NCBI RefSeq assembly: GCF_000336675.1
Contig: NZ_AOMB01000006.1
Coordinates: 17,221-57,220 of the forward strand
Source of the DNA: Halococcus hamelinensis 100A6
Lineage (GTDB): Archaea; Halobacteriota; Halobacteria; Halobacteriales; Halococcaceae
Direction of reading: 5' to 3'
DNA: 40,000 nt
Shown here: in pieces, positions 8,476-19,996 of the stretch
How positions within the stretch are numbered: the first letter of the stretch is position 1
Layout: each line of letters opens with the position of its first letter
The notes under the pieces: generated by a model
The model's database searches: none
What the model was told of the DNA's origin: nothing
Seen by the model: only the letters and a program-made list of their open reading frames with translations
Position numbers and translations under genes: made by a program

Positions 8476-9186
8476 TCAGTCCACGTGCTCCCCGTAGAGT
8501 GCCGACCGGTCGACGATGTTCTGGACGGTCGTTCTCGTGACCCCCGCCAGTTTCGCGGTCGAGCGCTTGCTCTTGCCGTCGCGGAGTCGTTCGATGACCA
8601 GGAGCGCGGTGTTGAAGTCGTCGTTGGGAACCAATCGTCCGTTCTCGCTGTCGAAGCCGTACGGGGGCCGACCGACGTGTTTGCCGCTCGCCTTCGCGGC
8701 GTGGATCCCCTCGCGCGTTCGTTCCGTGCTCACCGACGCCTCGATATCCGCGGCGATCGATAGCCCCTGTAGTATCGCGCTCTCGTCGGGGGAGTCGGTT
8801 CCATCGGCGCGAGCCGTCCCCTGCTCGCCCAATGCGAGACCGATGTCGAGGATGTGGAGCGCGACCCCCGCATCGAGGAGCGTCTCGACGAACTCGTTGA
8901 AGTCCACGACCGTCTTCGCGACGCGAGCGGCATCGGTGACGATGACCCGGTCTACTGCCGTCGCAGCGATCCGGTCGAGCATCGTTTGATAGCCCGACGA
9001 CTGGTCGGCACGCGCTTCCACGCCCTCATCGACGAACACCGAGACGTCGTTCGGGTCGAGGTCGAAGTTCCGTTCGGCGTAACTGAGGATTTGCTCGCGC
9101 TGGTTCGCTCCCCTCCCCGTACTAACGACGCGGACATAACCGATGGTCGCCTTTTCTCTCGTATCTCCGCCACTATCTACTGCCAT
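8476..9186 (-). CDS. Serine-recombinase (resolvase/invertase) family protein with C-terminal HTH and divergent catalytic motifs
   Basis: 236 aa. The N-terminus IGYVRVVSTGRGANQREQ resembles the YxRVSTxxQ nucleophile motif but carries insertions. The C-terminal HTH is RSTAKLAGVTRTTVQNIVDR, preceded by GRPPYGF. It is flanked on both sides by AT-richer non-coding DNA. Confidence 0.75.
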   Translation of the reverse strand: MAVDSGGDTREKATIGYVRVVSTGRGANQREQILSYAERNFDLDPNDVSVFVDEGVEARADQSSGYQTMLDRIAATAVDRVIVTDAARVAKTVVDFNEFVETLLDAGVALHILDIGLALGEQGTARADGTDSPDESAILQGLSIAADIEASVSTERTREGIHAAKASGKHVGRPPYGFDSENGRLVPNDDFNTALLVIERLRDGKSKRSTAKLAGVTRTTVQNIVDRSALYGEHVD

Positions 9187-9472
9187 CGATCAACGTCTGT
9201 TGACGGTCTCGGCTGCTGCTGATATGTGCGTTGCGAATAACCACGGCCCGACAGGCCGTCCGCATCGGTTTTTGGCATCGGTTACCATTGATTACCAAGG
9301 CCTGTATTTAACACAGGGGTTATTAACACCCTGCCGGTACAAGCCGATGTGCTATTCGCCTACTATTCCGATACACCGTACGTCTCTCTCGATGCTGCGG
9401 TGACCGACACGTCAAGGGAGGGTGCTAGAAACCAATGTTTACAAATACTCGATTGATGGACGGGGGTATGCA

Positions 9473-10639
9473 ATGACTGGCGATCGAGGGTCGGCCTCGA
9501 CGCGACGGAACGTCCTCCGTGCCGGGGCACTCGCGGGGGTTGGAGCACTTTCGGGATGTATCGGAGCCGGAGCGACGACCGGGCGAGAGCTGACGATCGG
9601 CTATCAACCGTACTACGCGGAGGCGTGGTCCGCCGTGGTGATAAAGAACGCCGGGCTGGCCGAGGAGTTCCTCCCCTCGGGCTACTCGGTCAAGAACTGG
9701 GACTCCGCGCTGCAGGGGTCGATCGTCGGGACGCGAATGATATCGGGGAAGAACCAGGTCGGCTACACGGGCGATATGCCGACGATCACGGCGATCGCGA
9801 ACGACAGCACCCCGATCAGCGTCGTCGGTCTCGCGGGCTACTCGGAGGGCCAGCAGTGCAGCCTCGCGGTGCGACCCACCGGTTCGGGGGTGACGAACGT
9901 CCAGCAGATGGACGGGCGCGACGCCGCAGTCACGACCGGGAGCTGTACGCATCGGTTCTACCTCAACGTCGTCGAACAGACCGGCGTCCAGCCGAACCTC
10001 GTCGACAACTCGATCGGGAACATCCTGGCCGAGATCCGCCAGGGCTCGCTGCCGGTCGGCTTCGGCTGGGAACCGAACATGGCCCGAACGGTCTACCAGG
10101 AGGACGCCGCCGAGTACTTCATCAGCGGTTCGGAGTTCGATACCGGCGACGCGGCGGGGATCATCATGCCGGATTCGTTGATCGAGAACGACCGAGAGGC
10201 CGCGATCGGCTGGCTCAAGGCCGAGCTCAGGGCCAAGGAGATCATGGCCAACGACCACGAGCGCACGCTCGACCTCGTCGCCGAGGAGGGCGACCTCGCG
10301 ACCTACGACCGGGACGTCCTGCGCTCGTGTCTCTACGAGAGCCTCCGGCTCGACCCCTCGACCAATCGGCTCGAACTCATCACGGACTACGCGGCCGTCC
10401 CACAGGCCAACCGGTTGATGACCCAGCAGGGCCCGCGATTCCTCCAGGAACAGGGCGCTATCTCCGCGCTGCCGGCCGATTCGAGATACAAGCCCGGACT
10501 CACGAAGACGGCGGCCGACGAACTCGGCGTCGGGACCGGACTCGACCGCTTCGGCGGGTCGAACGGATCGAGTGGGTCGAACGGGTCGAATTCGAGCGCG
10601 GCAGGGGCGAACGCGAGCACGTCCGGGGACGGACGATGA
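9473..10639 (+). CDS. ABC transporter substrate-binding lipoprotein, NitT/TauT (NMT1/THI5-like) family, Tat-exported
   Basis: ATG at 9473 (MTGDRGSASTRRNVLRAGALAGVGALSGCIGAG) gives a twin-arginine motif plus a lipobox Cys. The body resembles nitrate/sulfonate/taurine/HMP-type binding proteins. The C-terminal tail GGSNGSSGSNGSNSSAAGANASTSGDGR is low-complexity and holds five N-X-S/T sequons. The stop overlaps the next ATG (ATGA at 10636-10639). Confidence 0.8.
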   Translation: MTGDRGSASTRRNVLRAGALAGVGALSGCIGAGATTGRELTIGYQPYYAEAWSAVVIKNAGLAEEFLPSGYSVKNWDSALQGSIVGTRMISGKNQVGYTGDMPTITAIANDSTPISVVGLAGYSEGQQCSLAVRPTGSGVTNVQQMDGRDAAVTTGSCTHRFYLNVVEQTGVQPNLVDNSIGNILAEIRQGSLPVGFGWEPNMARTVYQEDAAEYFISGSEFDTGDAAGIIMPDSLIENDREAAIGWLKAELRAKEIMANDHERTLDLVAEEGDLATYDRDVLRSCLYESLRLDPSTNRLELITDYAAVPQANRLMTQQGPRFLQEQGAISALPADSRYKPGLTKTAADELGVGTGLDRFGGSNGSSGSNGSNSSAAGANASTSGDGR

Positions 10640-11484
10640 GCACGCAGTCGTTCTCCGAGCGGTTGCTCGGCGACCGGGCGGGCCTCGGCGTTCCGCGTCG
10701 AGTCGTCCAGCTCGGGTCGGTGCTCGGGTTCCTCGTCGTCTGGTGGGCGCTCGTCCGGTTCGGCGTCCTCGGCTTCGAGTACCTGGCCGGCCCGGTCGAG
10801 ACGGGGACGAACATGCTCGCCTATCTCGCCGGCGAACCGATGGCGAGCGGCGGGACCATCTATCTGCACGCGGCGTACTCGACCTTTCGCGTCGTGTTCG
10901 GTGTCGGCATCGCGGCGTTGCTGGCCGTCCCGCTCGGGCTCGCGATCGGGACGAGCCAGCGGTTCGAGGACTACACGTTTCCGGCGCTCGAGATCCTCCG
11001 ACCGATCCCGCCGGTCGCCTGGGTCCCGATCAGCGTCCTCCTGTTGCCGGCGCTCGACCTCCTCGGCGTCGAGGTCAGCCTCGCCGTGCTGTTCGTGGTT
11101 TTCATCGGGGCCTTCTTCCCGATCCTCATCAACACGGTCGAGGGCGTTCGCACGATCGAAGAGGAGTACACGCGAGCCGCCCACAGTCTCGGTGCGGAGG
11201 GCCTCCAGGTCTTCCGGTACGTCGTCTTCCCGGCGACGCTCCCGTCGATCCTCACCGGGATATCGATCAGCATCGGGCTCGGCTGGATCACGGTCGTCGC
11301 CGCCGAGATCATCGCCGGCAACTACGGCCTCGGGTACACGATCTTCCAGGCCTACCGCCTCCTCCAGACCGACGTCGTGCTCGTCGGGATGGTCGTGATC
11401 GGCGTGCTCGGCTACGCCTCCTCGGCGCTGGTGAATCGCTACGCCGCACGGCGGATGCCCTGGAGCGAGCGTGAGAGCCGATGA
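10636..11484 (+). CDS. ABC transporter permease (NitT/TauT family, BPD_transp_1)
   Basis: MSTQSFSERLL... is read in the frame of tracked ORF 9556..11484. It is multi-TM and carries the EAA-loop-like block EEEYTRAAHSLGAEGLQVFRYVVFPATLPSILTG. The start is coupled to the SBP stop. Confidence 0.88.
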   Translation: MSTQSFSERLLGDRAGLGVPRRVVQLGSVLGFLVVWWALVRFGVLGFEYLAGPVETGTNMLAYLAGEPMASGGTIYLHAAYSTFRVVFGVGIAALLAVPLGLAIGTSQRFEDYTFPALEILRPIPPVAWVPISVLLLPALDLLGVEVSLAVLFVVFIGAFFPILINTVEGVRTIEEEYTRAAHSLGAEGLQVFRYVVFPATLPSILTGISISIGLGWITVVAAEIIAGNYGLGYTIFQAYRLLQTDVVLVGMVVIGVLGYASSALVNRYAARRMPWSERESR

Positions 11485-11590
11485 CGACGAGGGGAATGCA
11501 CCACGACCGCGTCGCCGTCCCGCCGGCCGCCGGTCACACGACCGTATCGACCATCGAACGAACCACCCAACCGCGAGCGACCAACGACCA

Positions 11591-12466
11591 ATGAGCAACA
11601 CCGACCAGAACACGACCGAGGCTGTGAGCAGTACCGAATCGAACACCGCGGCAGCGAGAAACGGGACGCAGAAGGCCGAAACGGGGGCGATCGAGATCGA
11701 CGACGTCGCGAAGGTCTACGACCCCGACGGCGACCACGTCGTCGCCGTCGAGGACATGAACCTCGACATCGAGGCCAACGAGTTCATCACGATCCTCGGC
11801 CCCTCCGGGTGTGGCAAGAGCACGGTGATGGAGTGCGTCGCGGGCTATCTCGAACCGACCGAGGGCGAGGTCCGCGTCGACGGTACCCGCGTGAACGGTC
11901 CCGACCCCTCCCGGGGGGTCGTCTTCCAGGCCAACCGCCTCTTCCCGTGGTTGACGATCGCCGAGAACGTCCGGTTCGGCCCACGGATGCGGAGCGAGGT
12001 CGACAACGAGCGCGTGAACGGCCTGATCAAGCAGATGGGGCTGGACGGCTTCGAGGACTCCTATCCCCACGAACTCTCGGGCGGGATGCAACAGCGCGCC
12101 GAGCTCGCCCGGCTGTTCGCGAACGACCCGGACATCATGCTGATGGACGAGCCGTTCAGCGGACTCGACGCGATGACCAAGGAGCTGATGCAGGAGGCGC
12201 TGCTCGAGGTCTGGGAGAACGAGAGCCGAACGGTGATCTTCATCACCCACGACGTCGAGGAAGCGATCTTCCTCGCCGACCGGGTCGTCGTGATGAGCGC
12301 CCGGCCGGGTCGAGCCAAGGACGTCCTCGACGTCGATCTCGAACGACCCCGGAGCCTCGATATGATCACGACCGACGAGTTCACCCGCGTCAAACGCCGT
12401 GCGCTCGACCTCATCCACGAGGAAGCCGAACGCGCGATGGAACAGGCCGCGGGACGGGTCGATTGA
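11591..12466 (+). CDS. ABC transporter ATP-binding protein (NitT/TauT family)
   Basis: ATG at 11591 (MSNTDQNTTEA...). It has Walker A GPSGCGKST, signature LSGGMQQR and Walker B IMLMDEPFSGLD. VFQANRLFPWLTIAENV is typical of SsuB/TauB/ThiZ-like ATPases. Confidence 0.92.
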   Translation: MSNTDQNTTEAVSSTESNTAAARNGTQKAETGAIEIDDVAKVYDPDGDHVVAVEDMNLDIEANEFITILGPSGCGKSTVMECVAGYLEPTEGEVRVDGTRVNGPDPSRGVVFQANRLFPWLTIAENVRFGPRMRSEVDNERVNGLIKQMGLDGFEDSYPHELSGGMQQRAELARLFANDPDIMLMDEPFSGLDAMTKELMQEALLEVWENESRTVIFITHDVEEAIFLADRVVVMSARPGRAKDVLDVDLERPRSLDMITTDEFTRVKRRALDLIHEEAERAMEQAAGRVD

Positions 12467-13308
12467 TGGCGACCGTCGAGAACGAACGTGGCTCCGGGTC
12501 GGGGTCCGGTTCGGGGACCGGTGGTTCGGTCACCGTTCCGCGACCGGTCCGTCGTGTCACCTCGGTGCTCGCCCTGCTCGTGCTCTGGGCGCTCGCGACC
12601 AACCTCGGGTTGCTCAGCGAACTGCCCTCGCCGTTCGCCGTCGGGACGACGTTCCTCGACCAGTTCGCCGAGGTGTCGTTCTGGAGCGCCGCGGCCGTGA
12701 GCACGGCTCGAATCTACGTTTCGTTCGTCCTCGCGCTCGTCCTCGCCGTCCCGATCGGGTTGCTGATCGGGTGGAATCAGACGTTCTCGGACGCGGTCTA
12801 TCCGGCCCTCGAGATGCTTCGCCCGGTCCCGCCGGTCGCCTGGATCCCGGTCGTCGCGCTCGTGTTCCCGATCGTCTCGGTCGGTGCGGGCGCGCTCGAC
12901 TACCCGGTCGATACGGGCATCCTCTTCATCACCTTCCTCGGGGCCTTCTTCCCGATCCTGCTCAACGCGATCAGCGGGGTCAAACAGATCGACGAGGAGT
13001 TCCCCCGGGCGGCCCGGTCGCTCGGGACGTCGCCGTTCCAGACGTTCCGATACGTGGTCTACCCCGGCGCGTTGCCGTCGATCCACGCCGGAATGGTGAG
13101 CGGGATGGGGCTCGCGTGGGTCAACCTCGTCGCCGCGGAGATGATCGCCGGAAGCGGGCTCGGCTATCTCACCTGGTCGTCGTACATCGCCGGCGACTAC
13201 GCGAGCATCGTCGTTGGCATGCTCTCGATCGGCCTGCTGGGATACTGCTCCTCGCTCATCGTTCGCCGGATCGGTACGCGTCTGCTCCCGTGGAGCAGCA
13301 CGGAGTGA
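12466..13308 (+). CDS. Second ABC transporter permease (NitT/TauT family)
   Basis: ATG at 12466 overlaps the ATPase TGA by 1 nt (TGATG). It starts MATVENERGSGSGSGSGTGGS... and is a paralog of 10636..11484, sharing LRP(I/V)PPVAW(V/I)P and (E)E(E/F)..AA.SLG....F.YVV.P.ALPSI. Confidence 0.88.
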   Translation: MATVENERGSGSGSGSGTGGSVTVPRPVRRVTSVLALLVLWALATNLGLLSELPSPFAVGTTFLDQFAEVSFWSAAAVSTARIYVSFVLALVLAVPIGLLIGWNQTFSDAVYPALEMLRPVPPVAWIPVVALVFPIVSVGAGALDYPVDTGILFITFLGAFFPILLNAISGVKQIDEEFPRAARSLGTSPFQTFRYVVYPGALPSIHAGMVSGMGLAWVNLVAAEMIAGSGLGYLTWSSYIAGDYASIVVGMLSIGLLGYCSSLIVRRIGTRLLPWSSTE

Positions 13309-13548: not shown

Positions 13549-14361
13549 CTACGCTCCGAACCCACCCACCGCGAGGAATCGTTCGTACTCCGGTTCGGTG
13601 AGGCCCGTCTGCCCGAGGTCCCTCCCGTGGGCGTCGCTCCCACCGGTGACGAGGAGGTCGTGGCGCTCGACCGTTCGTCGGTCGCGACCGGAATCGTGGG
13701 CTGGGTTGGACGGGGAGTAGGGGTAGCGACACTCCACCGCGTCCAGTCGGGCAGCCAACTCGAAGACGTCGTCGAGCGCGCCGTACCGATACGGATGTGC
13801 GAGGCTGACGACGTTACACGCCTCCGAGAGCAGTGAAACGCCCCGCTCGAACGAGGGGATCTCGCGCGGGACGTTACAGGGACCGTCGTCGCCGATGAGT
13901 TCGTCGAAGGCGTCCTGATAGGTGTGATCGGTCCCGGGGTGTGCATCGACCGCGCGGGCGATGTGTGGACGACCGATGCCCTCCTCGACCTCGACGTCCA
14001 GCGTGATGTCCAGCTCGCGCTCGACCAGTTCGATGATGCGTGCGCCACGGGTCTTCCGGTCCATCTGAAGGCGGTCGAGCTCGGTACGGAGTGCGGGTGA
14101 CCCCGTCACGCCGTACCCGAGCAGGTCGATCCCGTCGGGAAGCGAATCGACCTCGACGCGGAGTTCGATCCCGTGGATGACGTCGATGCCGTCGACCCGC
14201 ACGAGCGGTGCGTCCAGATCAGGGTGGGTCCTGTCGTGGTCGGTGACGGCGACGGCGGCGAGGCCGGCTTCGGTCGCCGCGGCCGGAACCTCGTCGAGGG
14301 CGAGTTCGCCGTCGGAGTTCGTCGTATGGACGTGCAGATCCGCGTAGACCGGCTCTTTCAT
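13549..14361 (-). CDS. PHP-domain metal-dependent phosphoesterase (COG0613 / TrpH-YciV type); candidate 3',5'-bisphosphate nucleotidase
   Basis: ATG at 14359-14361 (MKEPVYADLHVHTTNSDGELALDEV...AVAVTDHD...GIELR...LAHPYRY...GGSDAHG). The DLHVHTxxSDG, TDHD, GxE, AHP and GSDAHG blocks are the PHP metal ligands. It is transcribed divergently from the sulfotransferase operon. Confidence 0.85.
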   Translation of the reverse strand: MKEPVYADLHVHTTNSDGELALDEVPAAATEAGLAAVAVTDHDRTHPDLDAPLVRVDGIDVIHGIELRVEVDSLPDGIDLLGYGVTGSPALRTELDRLQMDRKTRGARIIELVERELDITLDVEVEEGIGRPHIARAVDAHPGTDHTYQDAFDELIGDDGPCNVPREIPSFERGVSLLSEACNVVSLAHPYRYGALDDVFELAARLDAVECRYPYSPSNPAHDSGRDRRTVERHDLLVTGGSDAHGRDLGQTGLTEPEYERFLAVGGFGA

Positions 14362-14675
14362 TTCGGTCACCGACCGTCCATCGGACCTCCAACCCATTAA
14401 CGGAGCGGATGCTCGGCGCTCGCCCGTATGATCCGCCGACAGCGGCGCGGGAGCGGTGCCTGCAGGCGAAGGCAGCACTCACTTGCTAACTCATCGCAAT
14501 CGTACGGTCGTTCGTCCATTTCGATCGACAACGACTGGCCCGACGCGGGAACCCCTCAGTCACTGTCGGTGTGACGACCGACGATTCTCATGATGACACA
14601 CAGAGCACGCCCGACGAAACCGAGTCAGCAGCCCCGACGACGCGTCGATCCGATGACGACACCGAACGGTGATGG

Positions 14676-15899
14676 GTGGTGAGCAGCGAAGGATCGAGTC
14701 GTCTCCGGGAACGGGCCAGACGGAACTACGGGTACATCGAGCGCGAGGTTATCTCGGAGGGGAAACGCTCGGTCCTCTCGAACCATCGGATCGACGACTT
14801 CGACAGCGTGTTGCTCATCGCGTCCGCCCCGCGGGGCGGCAGCAGTCTCCTCTTCGACGTTCTCCGGCACCACGAGCGGACGTGTAGCCTCGACGGCGAA
14901 CACGACCGATGGTTCATGCTCCACGACCTCTGTTACCCCACGTTCGAGTCGGACGTCATCCCGGCGGACTTCGATTCGTTCGACGGGGAGACCCTCGGAA
15001 GGGACCTCCTCGCCGAGGTCGGGGCGACCGAACGCGCCGGCGAGCACACACATCGCGTGGACAACACGCTCGTCCGACTCCCGTTGCAGTTCCCCGACCG
15101 GGAGCTCCCCTACGAGTGGATACGCGACCGGCTGCTCGACGGCGTACCGCTCGACGAGGTCCTTCGGGAACTCGACATCTCGCCGCTGCAGTACGACGAG
15201 TACGCGACGCGGGACGCCCCTCATCCGCTCGGAAACGAGACGATCGAGGACCGGCCGTTCGTCTCCTCGCACGACCACAAGCGGGCCCTCAGGGAGGACG
15301 ACTTCGAGCGCACGCTCGTCCTGAAGGCGAGCGGCGACGCGTACCGACTCCCGTGGATCCGAAACCAGCTCCTGCCCGAGACCGACGTCACCCTCGTTCA
15401 CCTCACGCGGAACCCGGCGGCGTCGATCAACGGCCTCTACGACGGGTGGCGACTGAACAGGGGTTTCCAGACGTACGACGTGGGCGACCTCGACCTCGAG
15501 GGCTACGACGGCTCGCTGTGGTGCTACGACCTCCCGCCGGGCTGGACCACGGAGGGAGACCTCATCGACGTCTGCCTGCTGCAGTGGCTCCAGGCCCACC
15601 GCCACATCCTCGACGCCCGCGACGCGTTCGACGACGTCCTCCGGGTCCGCTTCGAGGACGTGCTCACCGACACCCCGTCCGTCGTTCAGGAGGTCCTCGA
15701 GTTCGCCGGGCTCGGCGAGTCGGCGCTGCTCTCCGAGAACGTCGACGACCCCAACGAGGTCATGACGACGAAGGAGCCGAGGCGCGCTCGCTGGCGGGAC
15801 AGGGAGGACCTCATCCAGGGGACGCTCGACCGGGCCGACGGGACGTACTCCGAGGTCGTCGAACGACTGGGCTACACGGCGGAGTCCGAATGGATATGA
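14676..15899 (+). CDS. PAPS-dependent sulfotransferase family protein (acceptor unknown)
   Basis: 407 aa, with the start provisionally at GTG 14676 (no in-frame ATG nearby). LLIASAPRGGSSLLFDVL matches the 5'-phosphosulfate-binding loop (P-x-x-G-S/T-S/T). LVHLTRNPAASINGLYDGW matches the 3'-phosphate-binding R-x-P-x(5)-S motif. Confidence 0.8.
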   Translation: MVSSEGSSRLRERARRNYGYIEREVISEGKRSVLSNHRIDDFDSVLLIASAPRGGSSLLFDVLRHHERTCSLDGEHDRWFMLHDLCYPTFESDVIPADFDSFDGETLGRDLLAEVGATERAGEHTHRVDNTLVRLPLQFPDRELPYEWIRDRLLDGVPLDEVLRELDISPLQYDEYATRDAPHPLGNETIEDRPFVSSHDHKRALREDDFERTLVLKASGDAYRLPWIRNQLLPETDVTLVHLTRNPAASINGLYDGWRLNRGFQTYDVGDLDLEGYDGSLWCYDLPPGWTTEGDLIDVCLLQWLQAHRHILDARDAFDDVLRVRFEDVLTDTPSVVQEVLEFAGLGESALLSENVDDPNEVMTTKEPRRARWRDREDLIQGTLDRADGTYSEVVERLGYTAESEWI

Positions 15900-16078
15900 G
15901 CGAGCGAACGACGACCACGAGGGTCACACCCACGACGGACGAGCCAGCCCGGACGACCCGGGACGCATCGACTGTCGAGCCGGCGCCGACGGAGGCGTAC
16001 ACGCACGAACCCCCCGTCAGTGAGCTTGGGGGAGGAGTGGGAGGAACTCTCCTCCCCACGGGAGGGGGAGATCCGTGA
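15890..16078 (+). CDS. 62-aa Thr/Pro/Glu-rich micro-protein, translationally coupled at both ends (hypothetical)
   Basis: MDMSERTTTTRVTPTTDEPARTTRDASTVEPAPTEAYTHEPPVSELGGGVGGTLLPTGGGDP. The ATG at 15890 (and 15896) overlaps the sulfotransferase stop (ATGGATATGA). Its TGA (16076-16078) overlaps the next ATG (16078). By hand count 45 of 62 codons end in G/C, 36 of the first 43. The ORF exactly fills an otherwise unexplained 178-nt gap in an operon whose other junctions overlap. Confidence 0.45.
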   Translation: MDMSERTTTTRVTPTTDEPARTTRDASTVEPAPTEAYTHEPPVSELGGGVGGTLLPTGGGDP

Positions 16079-16965
16079 TGGGTGACACCCTGTGGCTCTT
16101 CGGGCTGCCCTGTTCCGGGAAGACGACGCTCGCCGAGGGGTTGGTCGGTCCGAGCACGGTCCATCTCGACGGGGACTACCTCCGGAACACCCTGAGTTCC
16201 GACCTCGGGTTCTCGAAGGCGGACCGGACCGAGAACCTGAGGCGGGCCGCCGGGGTCGCCCAGGCGTTGAACGAGCAGGGGTTCGACGTCGTCGCGTCGT
16301 TCATCACCCCCTATCGGTCCCAGCGGGAACTGGTCGCCGAGGTGGTCGAGAACGTCTCGTTCGTGTTCGTCGACACGCCGCTCGAAGTCTGTGAGGAGCG
16401 TGACGTGAAGGGGATGTACGAGCGAGCCCGTCGGGGCGAGATAGAGGGCTTCACCGGTATCGACGCGCCGTTCGAGGGGCTGGCGAGCGACGAGGCCGGG
16501 CTCGAAGTCCGAACGGCGACGAACTCGAAGGAGCGGATCATCGCGGAGATCAACGAGACGCTGGACCGCAAGCTCGATCCGAGCCACGTCTTCATCGGTC
16601 GTTGGCAGCCGCTCCACGACGGCCACCGGACGATCATCGACTCGGCCGCCGACAACGGGAAGGACGTCGTCATCGCGATCCGTGACACCGAACTCAGCGA
16701 GAAGAACCCGCTCACCGCACAGGAGCGCCGGGACCTGATCGAGACGGTCTACGAGGACCACCCGAACGTCGAGACCATGATCGTCCCGGACATCGACACC
16801 GTCGCCATCGGACGGGACGTCGGCTACTCCGTCGTCGCGGTTCCCGAGGACATCTCCGGGATAAGCGGCACGGAGACCAGGGAGAAGTACGGGAAGAGCG
16901 AACTCCTCGAAGGGCGACACTTCAGGGAGCGATCGGTCGATACGCGGCTTCCCGACCATGAATAG
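16078..16965 (+). CDS. cysC: Fusion protein: N-terminal adenylyl-sulfate (APS) kinase plus C-terminal NMNAT/cytidylyltransferase-like nucleotidyltransferase domain
   Basis: The N-terminal ~165 aa carry LFGLPCSGKTTLA (P-loop), LDGDYLR, DLGFSKADRTENLRR, SFITPY, VDTPLEVCEERDVKGMYERARRGEIEGFTGIDAPFE, collinear with CysC. The C-terminal ~125 aa carry VFIGRWQPLHDGH (the GRFQPxHxGH motif of archaeal NMN adenylyltransferases), KNPLTAQERRDLI and ISGTETRE (ISxTxxR motif). A GTG at 16075 is an alternative start. Confidence 0.85.
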   Translation: MGDTLWLFGLPCSGKTTLAEGLVGPSTVHLDGDYLRNTLSSDLGFSKADRTENLRRAAGVAQALNEQGFDVVASFITPYRSQRELVAEVVENVSFVFVDTPLEVCEERDVKGMYERARRGEIEGFTGIDAPFEGLASDEAGLEVRTATNSKERIIAEINETLDRKLDPSHVFIGRWQPLHDGHRTIIDSAADNGKDVVIAIRDTELSEKNPLTAQERRDLIETVYEDHPNVETMIVPDIDTVAIGRDVGYSVVAVPEDISGISGTETREKYGKSELLEGRHFRERSVDTRLPDHE

Positions 16966-17701
16966 GACGGGGCTGCTGTTCGACCAGCCGGAACTGGAGG
17001 ACGCGATAGCAACGGACGAGTTGCTCGATTGGAAGGAGAAACGGTACCTCGAGTTCAGGGAGACGATGCGGAACTCCCGGTACCCGTGTTACTTCGCGGT
17101 GAACGCCGAGCGGGACGACTCCGCCCGATACCTGTTCGCGGAGAACGCCCGTGACCGTGATACGCTTCTCAAGATACGGGAGGGGCTACAGCAGTACCTC
17201 CAACGGTATCGCTCCATCGCCGAACGCACGACCCTCGTCATCTTCTTCGGGCCCGCCGCCGAGGAGCGGAGCGAGCGCGACTACCACGAGCAGTTCTGGA
17301 GGGTGCTCGAGTTCCTCCACCGGCGGGACCCGGAGCCGTGGCCCGCCGACATCCCGACGGAGCCCGACGACCCCGAGTGGGAGTTCTGTTTCGCGGGGGA
17401 ACCGATGTTCGTCGTCGGGCGTGCGCCGTTCTATACGGACCGACGGAGTCGGTACACACCGTATGGGCTCGAGATAACGATCCAACCACGCGAAACCCTC
17501 GACGACATCCGTGGGGACACGGTGGAGGGCCAGCGGATCCGCTCGGTCATCGAGGGCCGGTTGGACGAGTACGACGACGTCGCTCCCCACCCCTCCATCA
17601 GCGATTACGGCGACCCCCACACCCGGGAGTGGAAACAGTACCTGCTCCCGACGTCGAACGAGGAGCGACTGAACGAGTTTCCGTTCGAGATGAACCCATA
17701 G
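16958..17701 (+). CDS. YqcI/YcgG family protein
   Basis: 247 aa. The ATG at 16958 overlaps the preceding stop by 8 nt (ATGAATAG). YPCYFA near the N-terminus and WEFCFAGEPMFVVGRAPFYTDRRSRYTPYGLEITIQPRE match the family signature (WxFxFxGExxFVxxxxPxYxxRxSRxxxxxxxxxFQPR). Confidence 0.8.
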   Translation: MNRTGLLFDQPELEDAIATDELLDWKEKRYLEFRETMRNSRYPCYFAVNAERDDSARYLFAENARDRDTLLKIREGLQQYLQRYRSIAERTTLVIFFGPAAEERSERDYHEQFWRVLEFLHRRDPEPWPADIPTEPDDPEWEFCFAGEPMFVVGRAPFYTDRRSRYTPYGLEITIQPRETLDDIRGDTVEGQRIRSVIEGRLDEYDDVAPHPSISDYGDPHTREWKQYLLPTSNEERLNEFPFEMNP

Positions 17702-17896: not shown

Positions 17897-18412
17897 ATGT
17901 CCGTTATCGCACTCCTGAGTACTACCCCAGCCCGAAGCGAGAACACCAGCGAGGAGGTCGCCGGAGCCGTCGAAGCCCTCGGCGACTACGACGTGGACCC
18001 CACCCTCACCGCGATGGGAACGATCATCGAAACTGACGACGTCGGCGAGCTGTTCGCCGCCGTCGAGGCTGCCCATCGAGCCGTCGACGCGGACCGGGTG
18101 ACGACGAAGCTCGAGATCGACCACGAACGGGACCGCGACCGGGGCGCATCCGCACGAGTCTCCGCCGTCGAGGAGATGCTCGGGGACGGGAGCGCCTCCG
18201 ACGGTCCCGCGGGAACGAACACCACGACGGACGACTCGGAGGAACTGGACAGCGTCGACATGAGTGGTCACGCTCCCGAGGACACCGAGGACGCGCCCGA
18301 GGAGGACGCCGGTATGAAGGGCGGGGACTACAAGACTGCGGACTCCGAGGCGGACGACGAACCGATAAGCGAGAAGTACGGGGAGGAGACCGACGGCTCT
18401 TCGAGCGATTAG
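17897..18412 (+). CDS. MTH1187/YkoF-family (DUF77) thiamine-binding-fold protein with a long acidic disordered tail
   Basis: The first ~95 aa (MSVIALLSTTP...EEVAGAVEAL...LTAMGTIIETDDVGELFAAVEAAHRAV..DRVTTKLEIDHERDR......RVSAVEEML) follow the MTH1187 pattern (PMGTxIEG..., KID.R.D). About 75 aa of D/E/S/T-rich sequence follow. An AT-rich TTAATAG at ~17862-17868 lies ~30 nt before the ATG, consistent with a leaderless transcript. Confidence 0.75.
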   Translation: MSVIALLSTTPARSENTSEEVAGAVEALGDYDVDPTLTAMGTIIETDDVGELFAAVEAAHRAVDADRVTTKLEIDHERDRDRGASARVSAVEEMLGDGSASDGPAGTNTTTDDSEELDSVDMSGHAPEDTEDAPEEDAGMKGGDYKTADSEADDEPISEKYGEETDGSSSD

Positions 18413-18645: not shown

Positions 18646-19011
18646 TCACTCGCTCAGATAGTCGATGATCGCATCCGCGCTCGAGATGTTCGTCGCGAAG
18701 GGGACGTCGTGAACGTCACAGACGCGGAGGAGGGCGGTGATGTCCGGGTCGTGGGGTTGGGAGGTGAGTGGGTCCCGCAGGAAGATCACCGCATCACACT
18801 CGTCGGTGGCGACGGCGGCACCGATCATCATGTCGCCACCGTGTGAGCCCGAGTTCAGCTGCTCGACCTCCAGTTCGGTTTCCTCACTGAGTCGCTCGCC
18901 GGTCGAGCCGGTCGCCATACAATCGAACTGTTCGAGGAGCTCGACGTGTTCGTCGACGAATTCGACCATAGCTTGTTTCTTCTCGTCGTGTGCCAAGAAC
19001 GCTAACTGCAT
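18646..19011 (-). CDS. mgsA: Methylglyoxal synthase
   Basis: LAFLAHDEKKQAMVEF..., ATGSTGERL, SGSHGGDMMIGA, AVIFLRDPLTSQPHDPDITALLRVCDVHDVPFATN match the MGS signature (AHDxxK, ATGTTG, GPxGGDQQIG, DPLxxQPHDPDVxALLR). The start is placed at ATG 19011. The tracked ORF extends to 19098, so the N-terminus is uncertain. Confidence 0.85.
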   Translation of the reverse strand: MQLAFLAHDEKKQAMVEFVDEHVELLEQFDCMATGSTGERLSEETELEVEQLNSGSHGGDMMIGAAVATDECDAVIFLRDPLTSQPHDPDITALLRVCDVHDVPFATNISSADAIIDYLSE

Positions 19012-19173
19012 CACGTAGAGACTGTCGAGCCGGCGTCTTGAGACTATGTTCACCCGTTTGATACGTGGGTGGTTGTGGTACGAGCGTGATTTCGGCATGG
19101 AACGCCACGATAGTGTGATATCAGCCGATCGAGTGCAACCCGAACGTAGTTCGACGGGACTACCCGGACCGTA

Positions 19174-19513: not shown

Positions 19514-19996
19514 TTACGGTACCCAGCCGCCGGACTCGTCCGATCCGTCCGAGTCGGTTCGGCGCGCCGGTCGGTAGGAGAGCCCCGCTTCCTTCATCAG
19601 ACGTCGACAGCTCGGTCGCGAGTACTCGACGCCGAAGGTGTCGCGGAGGTAGCGCTGTACCAGCGATGGGTTCCACGCCGAAGCGTCGACACCCGCCTCC
19701 GAGGGGGGCTGCTGGAGGGTCTCCTCGAAGGTCTCACGCTGGTCGGCGGTGAGCTTCCGTGGGCGACCCGAGCGGTCGGCGTCGACGACCGCGTCGGCGA
19801 GCGGCCGTGATTCGAGCCGCATGAGCCAGCTGTAGATGGTTCGGCGCTGGATCCCGTACCAGTCGGCGAGGTCGGTCTGGCTGACGCCGTTCTTGTAGGC
19901 GATCGCCGCGAGAAGGCGCTGTGTGGGTTTCGCCCCGTCGACCTCGTCGAGGGCCGCCTGCAGTTCCTCGACGGAGATCTCGTCGAGATGGTCCAT
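19514..19996 (-). CDS. Stand-alone IS630-type transposase N-terminal HTH domain protein (paralog of 2796..3323)
   Basis: 160 aa. It aligns by eye with 2796..3323 over its whole length (PTQRLL/M.A..YK, ...W(L/M).RL(D/E), A(W/S)(T/N)..L.QRY...TF.VEY.R...RRLM.EAGLS), at roughly 40% identity. There is no DDE ORF downstream. Confidence 0.7.
   Translation of the reverse strand: MDHLDEISVEELQAALDEVDGAKPTQRLLAAIAYKNGVSQTDLADWYGIQRRTIYSWLMRLESRPLADAVVDADRSGRPRKLTADQRETFEETLQQPPSEAGVDASAWNPSLVQRYLRDTFGVEYSRPSCRRLMKEAGLSYRPARRTDSDGSDESGGWVP

Follow-up and report, generated by a model that had tools for sequence, protein, structure and literature searches.

The subject of this analysis is a sulfation gene cassette in Halococcus hamelinensis 100A6, located in a window of 40,000 nt (the whole stretch of DNA analyzed, from contig NZ_AOMB01000006.1). 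The cassette (Table 1) consists of a PHP-domain phosphoesterase gene and, diverging from it, four plus-strand open reading frames (ORFs): a sulfotransferase (ST) gene, a micro-ORF, a fusion of an adenosine 5′-phosphosulfate (APS) kinase with a nucleotidyltransferase domain resembling nicotinamide mononucleotide adenylyltransferase (NMNAT; hereafter, the NT domain), and a YqcI/YcgG gene. The term pentein is used for the fold of arginine deiminase (ADI), dimethylarginine dimethylaminohydrolase (DDAH), and amidinotransferases. An initial annotation of the locus had proposed a translationally coupled module for the synthesis of 3′-phosphoadenosine 5′-phosphosulfate (PAPS) as donor of sulfate, sulfate transfer, and removal of the by-product 3′,5′-ADP (pAp).

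Gene content, organization, and conservation of the locus

All four plus-strand ORFs overlap stop-to-start as initially described. The ST/micro-ORF junction, ATGGATATGA at 15890-15899, is a 10-nt overlap in which the micro-ORF ATG (15890) is followed by a second in-frame ATG (15896). The micro-ORF stop codon, TGA at 16076-16078, falls inside GTGATG (16075-16080), the site of the kinase-fusion start; the NCBI record of the fusion (16075-16965; EMA41227.1/WP_007690449.1) starts at ATG 16078 and has 295 aa. Fusion and YqcI are joined by ATGAATAG at 16958-16965, an 8-nt overlap of the YqcI start with the TAG stop of the fusion. The proposal of a single, tightly packed operon was borne out, with its order kept across Halobacteria. 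The start of the PHP gene was placed at Met 14361, the choice of its relatives and of gene callers, and yields exactly the 314-bp divergent spacer of the initial annotation; this spacer is 84% identical to that of the nearest relative, which is roughly the neutral level. Searches of the whole window with Rfam (gathering threshold) and ARAGORN returned no RNA element, and PADLOC returned no defense-system match for PHP, ST, the kinase fusion, or YqcI.

Table 1. Features of the cassette, of its flanks, and of related operons. Positions are those of the window unless a locus label is given; aa, amino acids.
Feature	Position	Strand	Remarks
PHP-domain phosphoesterase, COG0613-like	13549..14361	-	270 aa from Met at 14361; ORF 13549-14478
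Divergent spacer PHP/ST, presumed promoters	14362..14675	.	314 bp
ST, PAPS-dependent, assigned to AcmO/NucO type	14676..15899	+	407 aa; GTG start; EMA41226.1; ends GAA TGG ATA TGA
Micro-ORF, relic of pentein (DDAH-like) gene	15890..16078	+	62 codons; no NCBI annotation
APS kinase (CysC) domain of fusion	16075..16569	+	APS_kinase and TIGR00455 matches
NT domain of fusion	16570..16965	+	CTP_transf_like match
YqcI/YcgG protein, predicted heme-thiolate N-hydroxylase	16958..17701	+	247 aa; WP_007690451.1
Serine recombinase (resolvase)	8476-9186	-
Four-gene ABC transporter	9422-13308		just upstream of PHP; 405-aa ORF without Pfam match, permease, ATPase, permease
MTH1187/YkoF-type thiamine-binding-like protein	17897-18412		long acidic C-terminal tail; dN/dS 0.39
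Methylglyoxal synthase	18646-19098		downstream of cassette
IS630-family transposase, helix-turn-helix half	19514-19996	-	160-aa ORF; 92 bits vs. cutoff 100; profile positions 1-119 of 299
ArgG homologues in intact-pentein operons	L010:9906-11234, L013:9909-11186, L014:9939-11348		no argH beside

Profile searches confirmed the domain expected of each product (sulfotransferase, APS kinase, CTP_transf_like, YqcI_YcgG, and PHP). The PHP protein matched its Pfam model with E = 1.9e-7. Its best NCBIfam match was NF041577, the 3′,5′-nucleoside bisphosphate phosphatase model (E = 4.6e-19, 68.6 bits), the cutoff of 400 not being reached, and the models for cyclic phosphate dihydrolase and RNase RNM scored nearly the same. 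Of approximately 17 lineages, only three have PHP in divergent orientation upstream of ST, namely Halococcus, Haladaptatus salinisoli (L003), and Halalkalicoccus salilacus (L010). Given a linkage restricted to three lineages and a score far under the pAp phosphatase cutoff, by-product removal is plausible, with PHP as an optional accessory. The synthesis and transfer parts of the module first proposed are a fair description, and the removal part applies as an option only.

A scan with an ST-family alignment, taking one genome per species, yielded 80 loci; 17 were haloarchaeal, several of them on plasmids. The order ST / short gap / APS kinase-NT / YqcI was found in 11 of 15 informative haloarchaeal loci, far beyond chance. 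Four metagenomic contigs of a close Halococcus relative hold the whole arrangement, PHP included. Compared with that relative, dN/dS was 0.19 for PHP, 0.19 for ST, 0.12 for the kinase fusion, and 0.09 for YqcI; therefore, all four genes are maintained by purifying selection. Co-occurrence of the five genes held in part: the cassette order is kept within Halobacteria, but the five-gene set was not found together in other phyla. The core conserved across phyla is ST plus a pentein gene, with or without an APS kinase.

The sulfotransferase family and the decayed pentein gene

The ST matched Sulfotransfer_3 with E = 6.4e-8 (33.5 bits; cutoff 27). Both PAPS-binding motifs read in it initially are present and conserved in the 61 ST-family sequences compared: the 5′-PSB motif SAPRGGSSLLF, in which R53, G55, and S57 are invariant, and the 3′-PB motif HLTRNPAASINGL (RNPAASxNGL), in which R245, N252, G253, and L254 are invariant. 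The best 50 Foldseek matches of the AF2 model (pLDDT 93.3) in PDB were all sulfotransferases, with Ols (4gox) and CurM (4gbm) leading. TM values to fold neighbors were 0.40/0.56, low because of large insertions.

In bacteria, ST is followed by an ADI/DDAH-like gene in 50 of 65 loci. The context in Streptomyces is melibiase / ST / ADI / GT2 glycosyltransferase / MFS / APS kinase, and in Omnitrophota and Planctomycetia it is canonical ST / ST / ADI / NT-APS kinase fusion / methyltransferase / radical SAM protein. Actinobacterial and deltaproteobacterial loci hold a radical SAM-B12 protein, a canonical ST, a 250-aa methyltransferase, a rubrerythrin-like protein, a 658-aa HATPase/GyrB plus methyltransferase protein, ST, ADI, and sulfatases. 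This last context equals the sulfamyl-group genes of nucleocidin and ascamycin in family and size (PMC10946740, PMC4257720); gene order, compared for nucleocidin only, is J-K-L-Q-P-O, the same as in the loci of the bacterial ST relatives. Knockouts have shown that nucG, nucI, nucJ, nucK, nucL, nucN, nucO, nucP, and nucQ are required for the sulfamyl group of nucleocidin (PMC10946740), and the formation of the S-N bond by the sulfamylation enzymes is still called cryptic (PMC9113183). Eleven or more genes are needed for it in the producers (PMC10946740, PMC9113183).

NucO has been described as a protein of approximately 444 aa with a weak Sulfotransfer_3 match, near 1e-8, and with CurM (4GBM) and Ols (4GOX) as its closest folds (PMC10946740). 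The window ST fits this signature in size (407 aa), E-value, and top folds, and an actinobacterial member of the family (L029; 461 aa, Sulfotransfer_3 E = 1.6e-7) agrees in size with AcmO (PMC4257720). By published descriptors, sizes, and synteny, not by direct alignment, we classified the window ST as AcmO/NucO type and the relic described below as AcmN/NucN type. The synteny of the window itself with the sulfamylation genes consists of the relic of the amidinotransferase-like partner only; it is the bacterial family members that keep the J-K-L-Q-P-O order. The cassette is an archaeal variant of a partly known, mechanistically unsolved system.

Some bacterial loci of the family deserve separate mention. 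An actinobacterial operon, melibiase (GH36-like) / AcmO-type ST / ADI-like / GT2 / MFS, which in the majority of cases also has a short APS kinase gene, occurs in nine Streptomyces/Streptacidiphilus loci and one Promicromonospora locus (L018, L023, L024, L027, L035, L037, L038, L051, L052, and L081). It is without the other sulfamylation genes, a published description of it was not found, and its product may be a glycosylated sulfo- or sulfamoyl compound. Two protein families without Pfam match accompany the sulfamylation-type loci: c26 (L055:4909-5835), upstream of the canonical ST in nine loci, looks like a real uncharacterized protein, and c38 (L028:3461-4600), which overlaps sulfatase genes in six loci, may be an antisense artefact. 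A literature search joining ST, DDAH, and radical SAM returned nothing relevant.

Four haloarchaeal loci (L010, L013, L014, and L097) have an intact 286-aa pentein gene, with the same overlapping junctions, in the place of the micro-ORF. Intact pentein proteins include WP_332097883.1 of Halalkalicoccus salilacus and WP_135303374.1 of Haloarcula amylovorans. The intact protein ends GAGGLACLTGRVD, with the catalytic-Cys motif GGLACLTG; its ADI/DDAH Pfam matches are weak, and the bacterial counterparts score above the ADI threshold, with bacterial DDAH as their nearest structures. Other haloarchaeal loci retain only the first ~30 and last ~50 pentein codons. Relics of 45, 62, ~80, and 127 aa (the latter in L006) and a near-full frameshifted copy (L009) were found, and frameshifts split the relic in L001, L004, L009, and L011. 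Because the sizes differ, decay was progressive or repeated. In the window, residues 12-61 of the micro-ORF are colinear with the C-terminal 51 residues of the intact pentein (17/51 identical), and the catalytic Cys is lost, its position in GGTLLPTG being occupied by Leu. The homology is visible only via intermediates and direct pairwise alignment: the full-length pentein, used as a tblastn query against the window, gave no significant match, and the micro-ORF has no Pfam match. In Halocatena pleomorpha (L009:6017-8755), an apparent evolutionary intermediate, the pentein is present as two overlapping frameshifted pieces (residues 1-119 and 135-285), and a YqcI gene whose product is 52% identical to that of the window lies divergently upstream of ST, on the other strand.

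Compared with the nearest relative, the micro-ORF has a 51-bp indel and 56% aa identity, whereas ST is 93% identical. Its dN/dS was 0.85 in this comparison, 1.0-1.2 in other close pairs, and 0.3-0.6 in four deeper or very close comparisons, against 0.12-0.27 for the neighboring genes (0.14-0.27 for ST and kinase). GC content is flat over its three codon positions (0.66/0.66/0.73), whereas real genes have GC2 of 0.41-0.56 and GC3 of 0.79-0.99. In view of these values, it is scarcely credible that the product of the micro-ORF is a small protein with a function of its own or a precursor peptide, rich in Thr and Pro, that ST and YqcI modify. Such a product would agree with a frame that overlaps both neighbors and is open in 10 of 14 relic-bearing loci (non-independent; rough chance expectation 0.1-0.4), and with the 80-aa version that carries a hypothetical-protein annotation in Haladaptatus salinisoli. 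It is contradicted by the neutral dN/dS, the indel, the missing codon-position signature, the frameshifted copies, and the origin of the frame as the tail of an enzyme gene; the conserved MDL/MDM start is there because the overlap with the ST C-terminus forces it. A RiPP-like precursor or small protein was ruled out as a candidate on the same grounds. Selection for ribosome run-through into the kinase gene, as a cause of the open frame, is only suggestive. The micro-ORF, initially presented as a new coupled component, is instead the remnant of an internally deleted AcmN/NucN-type gene and at most a translational relay from ST to the kinase fusion.

Predicted sulfate activation and guanidine hydroxylation, and proposed pathway

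The CysC-type APS kinase called initially was recovered at the equivalog score (TIGR00455, 150.7 bits; cutoff 138.7), with an APS_kinase E-value of 2.5e-43 and matches to PDB APS kinases at 1e-24 to 4e-33. The P-loop GLPCSGKT and the LDGD motif (VHLDGDYLR) are readable in the translation of the fusion.

The NT domain, of approximately 125 residues, matched Pfam CTP_transf_like (E = 4.4e-9 to 4.5e-8) and resembles the N-terminal half of archaeal NMNAT, with alignments spanning the first ~60-70 residues only. It scored 33.9 bits against the archaeal NMNAT model TIGR01527, not reaching the cutoff of 181.2, is ~40 residues shorter than NMNAT, and is also far below the phosphopantetheine adenylyltransferase (PPAT) cutoff. 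The motifs GRWQPxHxGH, IAIRD, GRxVGY, and IS(G/A)TxxR are invariant in the subfamily. In the haloarchaeal fusions, NT follows the APS kinase, and in those of Omnitrophota and Planctomycetia it comes first. Metagenomic contigs encode it as an unfused ~130-aa protein, whose gene immediately adjoins those for APS kinase and sulfotransferases, and the set NT / APS kinase / Sulfotransfer_2 is placed between the capsid and tail genes of a Patescibacteria prophage.

Matches to NT were found on 411 viral-contig stretches, of which 80 were inspected. An APS kinase lay ≤4 kb from NT in 76 of these 80 loci. Sulfotransferases were the commonest family among 149 sampled neighbor ORFs of the viral NT loci, and ATP sulfurylase, CysD, and CysN were not among the top 25 neighbor families in this sample. 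These arrangements suggest that phages encode sulfation together with a PAPS supply of their own. Viral NT genes were also often near DUF2061 and sugar-nucleotide enzymes; the NT loci concerned are L099-L178 (viral contigs), L098:8001-9155, and L089-L094. Databases name such proteins "adenylyl-sulfate kinase," "NMNAT," or "kinase"; PHROG 10255, labeled only "kinase," is the NT-APS kinase fusion. A literature search joining APS kinase and cytidylyltransferase returned nothing relevant.

ATP sulfurylase is a member of the HxxH nucleotidyltransferase superfamily, and NT has only the HxGH motif of that superfamily in common with it. The superfamily membership, together with the linkage of NT to APS kinase, makes a minimal sulfate adenylyltransferase (ATP sulfurylase) the best interpretation of NT, which we consider, from its gene linkage, a rather probable candidate. 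Alternatively, NT could be an adenylyltransferase for NMN, FMN, or another substrate, or a regulatory nucleotide-binding domain, with host ATP sulfurylase supplying APS. The nearest relatives in sequence and fold, NMNAT and PPAT, agree with this alternative, as do the missing ATP-sulfurylase Pfam match and the Streptomyces clusters that carry APS kinase alone. We nevertheless regard it as somewhat unlikely in view of the low NMNAT score, the shorter domain with Arg motifs of its own (IAIRD and GRxVGY), the fusion in both orders or adjacency to APS kinase from archaea to viral loci, and a viral neighborhood rich in sulfotransferases in which canonical ATP sulfurylase, CysD, and CysN are not among the top families.

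The YqcI protein matched Pfam YqcI_YcgG over 211 of 211 profile positions (E = 2.6e-73, 246.8 bits). It matched chains of the AglA crystal structure at 9e-41, and its YPCYF motif aligned to the heme ligand Cys44 (PMC12866846). YqcI/YcgG proteins are heme-thiolate enzymes, and all characterized members hydroxylate a guanidine N-H of arginine derivatives (PMC12866846). The GntA equivalog model was not reached (56.9 bits; cutoff 145). By family homology, the window YqcI is predicted to be a guanidine N-hydroxylase. Cassette-type YqcI proteins form their own clade, with 66-79% identity, paralleling the divergence of ST. YqcI and an intact pentein were never found together in the haloarchaeal loci: four loci have the intact gene without YqcI, and 12, plus Halococcus, have a degraded gene with YqcI. 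Because YqcI is confined to loci with a degraded DDAH-like gene, it probably displaced the pentein. A full-text literature search returned no paper holding both YqcI and sulfotransferase. Elsewhere, on the Natrinema pallidum chromosome (L179:6001-7397), a YqcI/YcgG gene whose product is 50% identical to that of the window overlaps a LysE-family gene for a basic-amino-acid exporter by 4 nt; this pair is perhaps a separate module that makes and exports a hydroxylated basic amino acid, and it counts among the observations in favor of the arginine-type chemistry proposed below.

The cassette might also be a broken leftover of a sulfamate-type operon, in which loss of the pentein inactivated the pathway and YqcI is an unrelated neighbor. 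The destroyed pentein gene fits this idea, and other haloarchaeal YqcI genes do sit in unrelated contexts. It is very improbable all the same, given the strong purifying selection on ST, APS kinase-NT, and YqcI (dN/dS 0.09-0.19), the divergence of the cassette YqcI clade in step with ST, and the relic-plus-YqcI arrangement, which with its overlapping stop/start codons spans at least eight genera.

An argininosuccinate synthase (ArgG) homologue is the next gene downstream of APS kinase-NT, at a distance of 7 bp, in three of the four intact-pentein operons (L010, L013, and L014), an arrangement that hints at arginine/citrulline chemistry. A DDAH-type hydrolase gives citrulline and ArgG consumes it, which fits arginine as a recyclable nitrogen carrier. 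A P450 in the place of YqcI in the intact-pentein loci was considered and rejected: the suspected 442-aa gene is the argininosuccinate synthase, and a P450 was found only in L097, 2 kb away.

Partner genes and distribution bear on the generic alternative, an O-sulfation module acting on a lipid, glycan, or small-molecule hydroxyl, such as those of sulfated archaeol glycolipids or N-glycans, with PHP removing pAp and with YqcI and the micro-ORF as novel accessories. The domain calls for ST, APS kinase, and PHP are compatible with such a module, the closest structural relatives of ST (CurM and Ols ST) are O-sulfotransferases, and genes for a melibiase, a GT2 glycosyltransferase, and an MFS exporter accompany the ST/pentein pair in Streptomyces. 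However, the near-universal partner of ST is a guanidino-modifying pentein or, in the window, a guanidine N-hydroxylase; ArgG belongs to the ancestral operon; the micro-ORF is a neutral relic; and PHP is linked in three lineages only. Haloferax and Halobacterium are the classic producers of sulfated glycolipids, and neither is among the named haloarchaeal matches to the ST family. We therefore consider generic O-sulfation improbable. The initial hint at glycolipid or N-glycan sulfation was not supported either, in view of a patchy, often plasmid-borne family (17 haloarchaeal species loci) whose constant partners are guanidino-directed enzymes.

We propose, with a probability of roughly 45%, that the cassette is a mobile, selection-maintained operon that sulfonates a nitrogen function originating in the guanidino group of arginine or of a closely similar compound, and that it descends from the ST/pentein gene pair on which the sulfamyl (S-N) group depends in ascamycin and nucleocidin producers. 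The C-terminal NMNAT-like domain would, as gene linkage makes fairly probable, adenylylate sulfate (ATP + sulfate → APS + PPi), and the fused CysC domain, by strong homology, would phosphorylate APS to PAPS. YqcI, needing an external reductase, would N-hydroxylate a guanidino nitrogen, as family-level homology to AglA, DcsA, and GntA indicates. The AcmO/NucO-type ST might then move the sulfo group from PAPS to the N-OH or guanidino N, a tentative step, and PHP, where present, may plausibly hydrolyze the inhibitory pAp. The ancestral haloarchaeal operon would have been ST / pentein / APS kinase-NT / argininosuccinate synthase. There, splitting of the sulfonated guanidine by the DDAH-like hydrolase would give sulfamate along with citrulline, the latter to be recycled by ArgG. 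In the lineage of the window, YqcI would have displaced the pentein, whose gene shrank to the 62-codon micro-ORF that still bridges the ST stop and the kinase start, and YqcI would supply an N-hydroxyguanidine to be sulfonated by ST instead.

Several points weigh against this proposal. NT gave no match to ATP sulfurylase PF01747 (Pfam, E ≤ 10), and the best 50 structural matches to its model included no ATP sulfurylase and returned PPAT and NMNAT; the model has an overall pLDDT of 73, with a confident N-terminal half and a C-terminal half of about 50. AcmO/NucO (NucO, WP_233452305) and AcmN/NucN (NucN, WP_142191283) were matched by descriptors, sizes, and gene order only. The complementarity of YqcI and pentein is drawn from related loci and thus reflects few independent events, ArgG is absent from L097, the fourth intact-pentein operon, and the cassette has no reductase partner for YqcI. 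Because the window has no pentein enzyme, no sulfamate would arise in it by the proposed ancestral route, and the product of the YqcI variant is a matter of guesswork. In addition, nucleocidin sulfamylation takes nine or more genes, so a system of three to four genes may not suffice or may act differently. Substrate, product, and activities of the cassette are all predictions from sequence.

A more far-reaching combination is doubtful as a whole. It would hold that NT is a third, unrecognized kind of ATP sulfurylase, forming with APS kinase a minimal PAPS synthase widespread in phages, candidate phyla, and haloarchaea. It would also hold that the haloarchaeal ST/pentein/APS kinase-NT/ArgG operons are minimal S-N bond machinery, in which arginine is N-sulfonated and cleaved to citrulline and sulfamate; the window would have a derived form of them, its chemistry diverted to an N-O-sulfonate by a heme N-hydroxylase.

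Taken together, the operon, the PAPS-dependent ST, and the APS kinase of the initial annotation were retained, and the micro-ORF as a component, the five-gene set across phyla, and the glycan or lipid acceptor were not. The AcmO/NucO type of ST, the characterization of YqcI/YcgG proteins as guanidine N-hydroxylases, and the weight given to the CTP_transf_like domain, the most interesting part, go beyond it.

Flanking genes and comparison with known systems

The initial annotation placed the cassette between a recombinase and IS-derived genes, which is loosely true: a resolvase and an IS630 fragment are present, but the ABC transporter separates the resolvase from the cassette. In the nearest relative (L085), the resolvase/ABC block (8476-13308) is replaced by a DAO/Rieske oxidoreductase gene and thus looks like a recent insertion or swap. 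The ABC transporter was ruled out as a cassette member by its absence from this closest relative, and the thiamine-binding-like gene and the methylglyoxal synthase gene were ruled out by a synteny confined to Halococcus. The IS630 fragment, a domesticated or truncated transposase, adjoins SRP19 and is found in the same place in relative L086.

A family present in at least 10 named bacterial groups has the AcmO/NucO-AcmN/NucN pair as its conserved core. Haloarchaeal relatives, not the window, keep this pair in a form of three to four genes with its own PAPS supply and argininosuccinate synthase, which leads to a testable hypothesis: arginine as the nitrogen donor and citrulline as the co-product. 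A YqcI guanidine N-hydroxylase appears able to take the place of the pentein enzyme. The NT-APS kinase module, present also on viral contigs, may provide activated sulfate by a new route, which, if true, would matter for how sulfur metabolism and the auxiliary genes of phages are annotated and for the engineering of PAPS regeneration. The leads are a minimal setting for arginine sulfonation of the S-N or N-O kind, a pentein displaced by a heme N-hydroxylase, and a candidate PAPS synthase common in phages.

The PHP protein is similar to COG0613 enzymes (Cv1693-type, YciV/RNase AM) in its PHP domain, in having the pAp phosphatase model as its best match, and in its position beside a PAPS-consuming operon in three lineages. 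Unlike the COG0613 pAp phosphatases, it scores 68.6 against 400 bits, and it is missing from most copies of the cassette. The kinase fusion parallels the bifunctional PAPS synthases, in which APS kinase precedes ATP sulfurylase (metazoan PAPSS) or Sat precedes CysC (fungi and Aquifex): a CysC-type kinase is fused to an HxGH-superfamily domain, both orders occur across lineages, and the fusion sits beside sulfotransferases. It differs in having an NMNAT-like core of ~125 residues instead of the ~400-residue PF01747 architecture, and its adenylyltransferase activity is only predicted.

YqcI shares with AglA, DcsA, GntA, ChmN, AmbT, and Mhr24 the full-length Pfam match and the thiolate ligand Cys, but it is coupled to a sulfotransferase, which is true of none of those enzymes. 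In the guanitoxin pathway, N-hydroxylation by GntA is followed by O-phosphorylation of the N-OH. By analogy, the cassette would follow the same logic, YqcI-type guanidine N-hydroxylation and then esterification of the N-OH by an acidic group from an activated nucleotide donor, with sulfate from PAPS replacing phosphate from ATP and with no further shared genes. The intact slot gene is closest to DDAH (PDB 1H70, 3RHY; about 1e-9 for a bacterial member), whereas the window keeps only its last ~51 codons, with the Cys replaced, and no longer encodes an enzyme.

The closest likeness in gene context is to the acm and nuc clusters. Bacterial ST relatives are ordered radical SAM / ST / methyltransferase / rubrerythrin / GyrB-methyltransferase / ST, the ST usually lies beside an amidinotransferase/DDAH-like gene of AcmN size (319-341 aa), and PAPS-supply genes are embedded. 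Unlike these clusters, the window is without an intact pentein gene and without the other seven sulfamylation genes, and it has YqcI and the NT-APS kinase fusion in place of a CysN/CysD-type ATP sulfurylase; it is archaeal, and its product is probably different.

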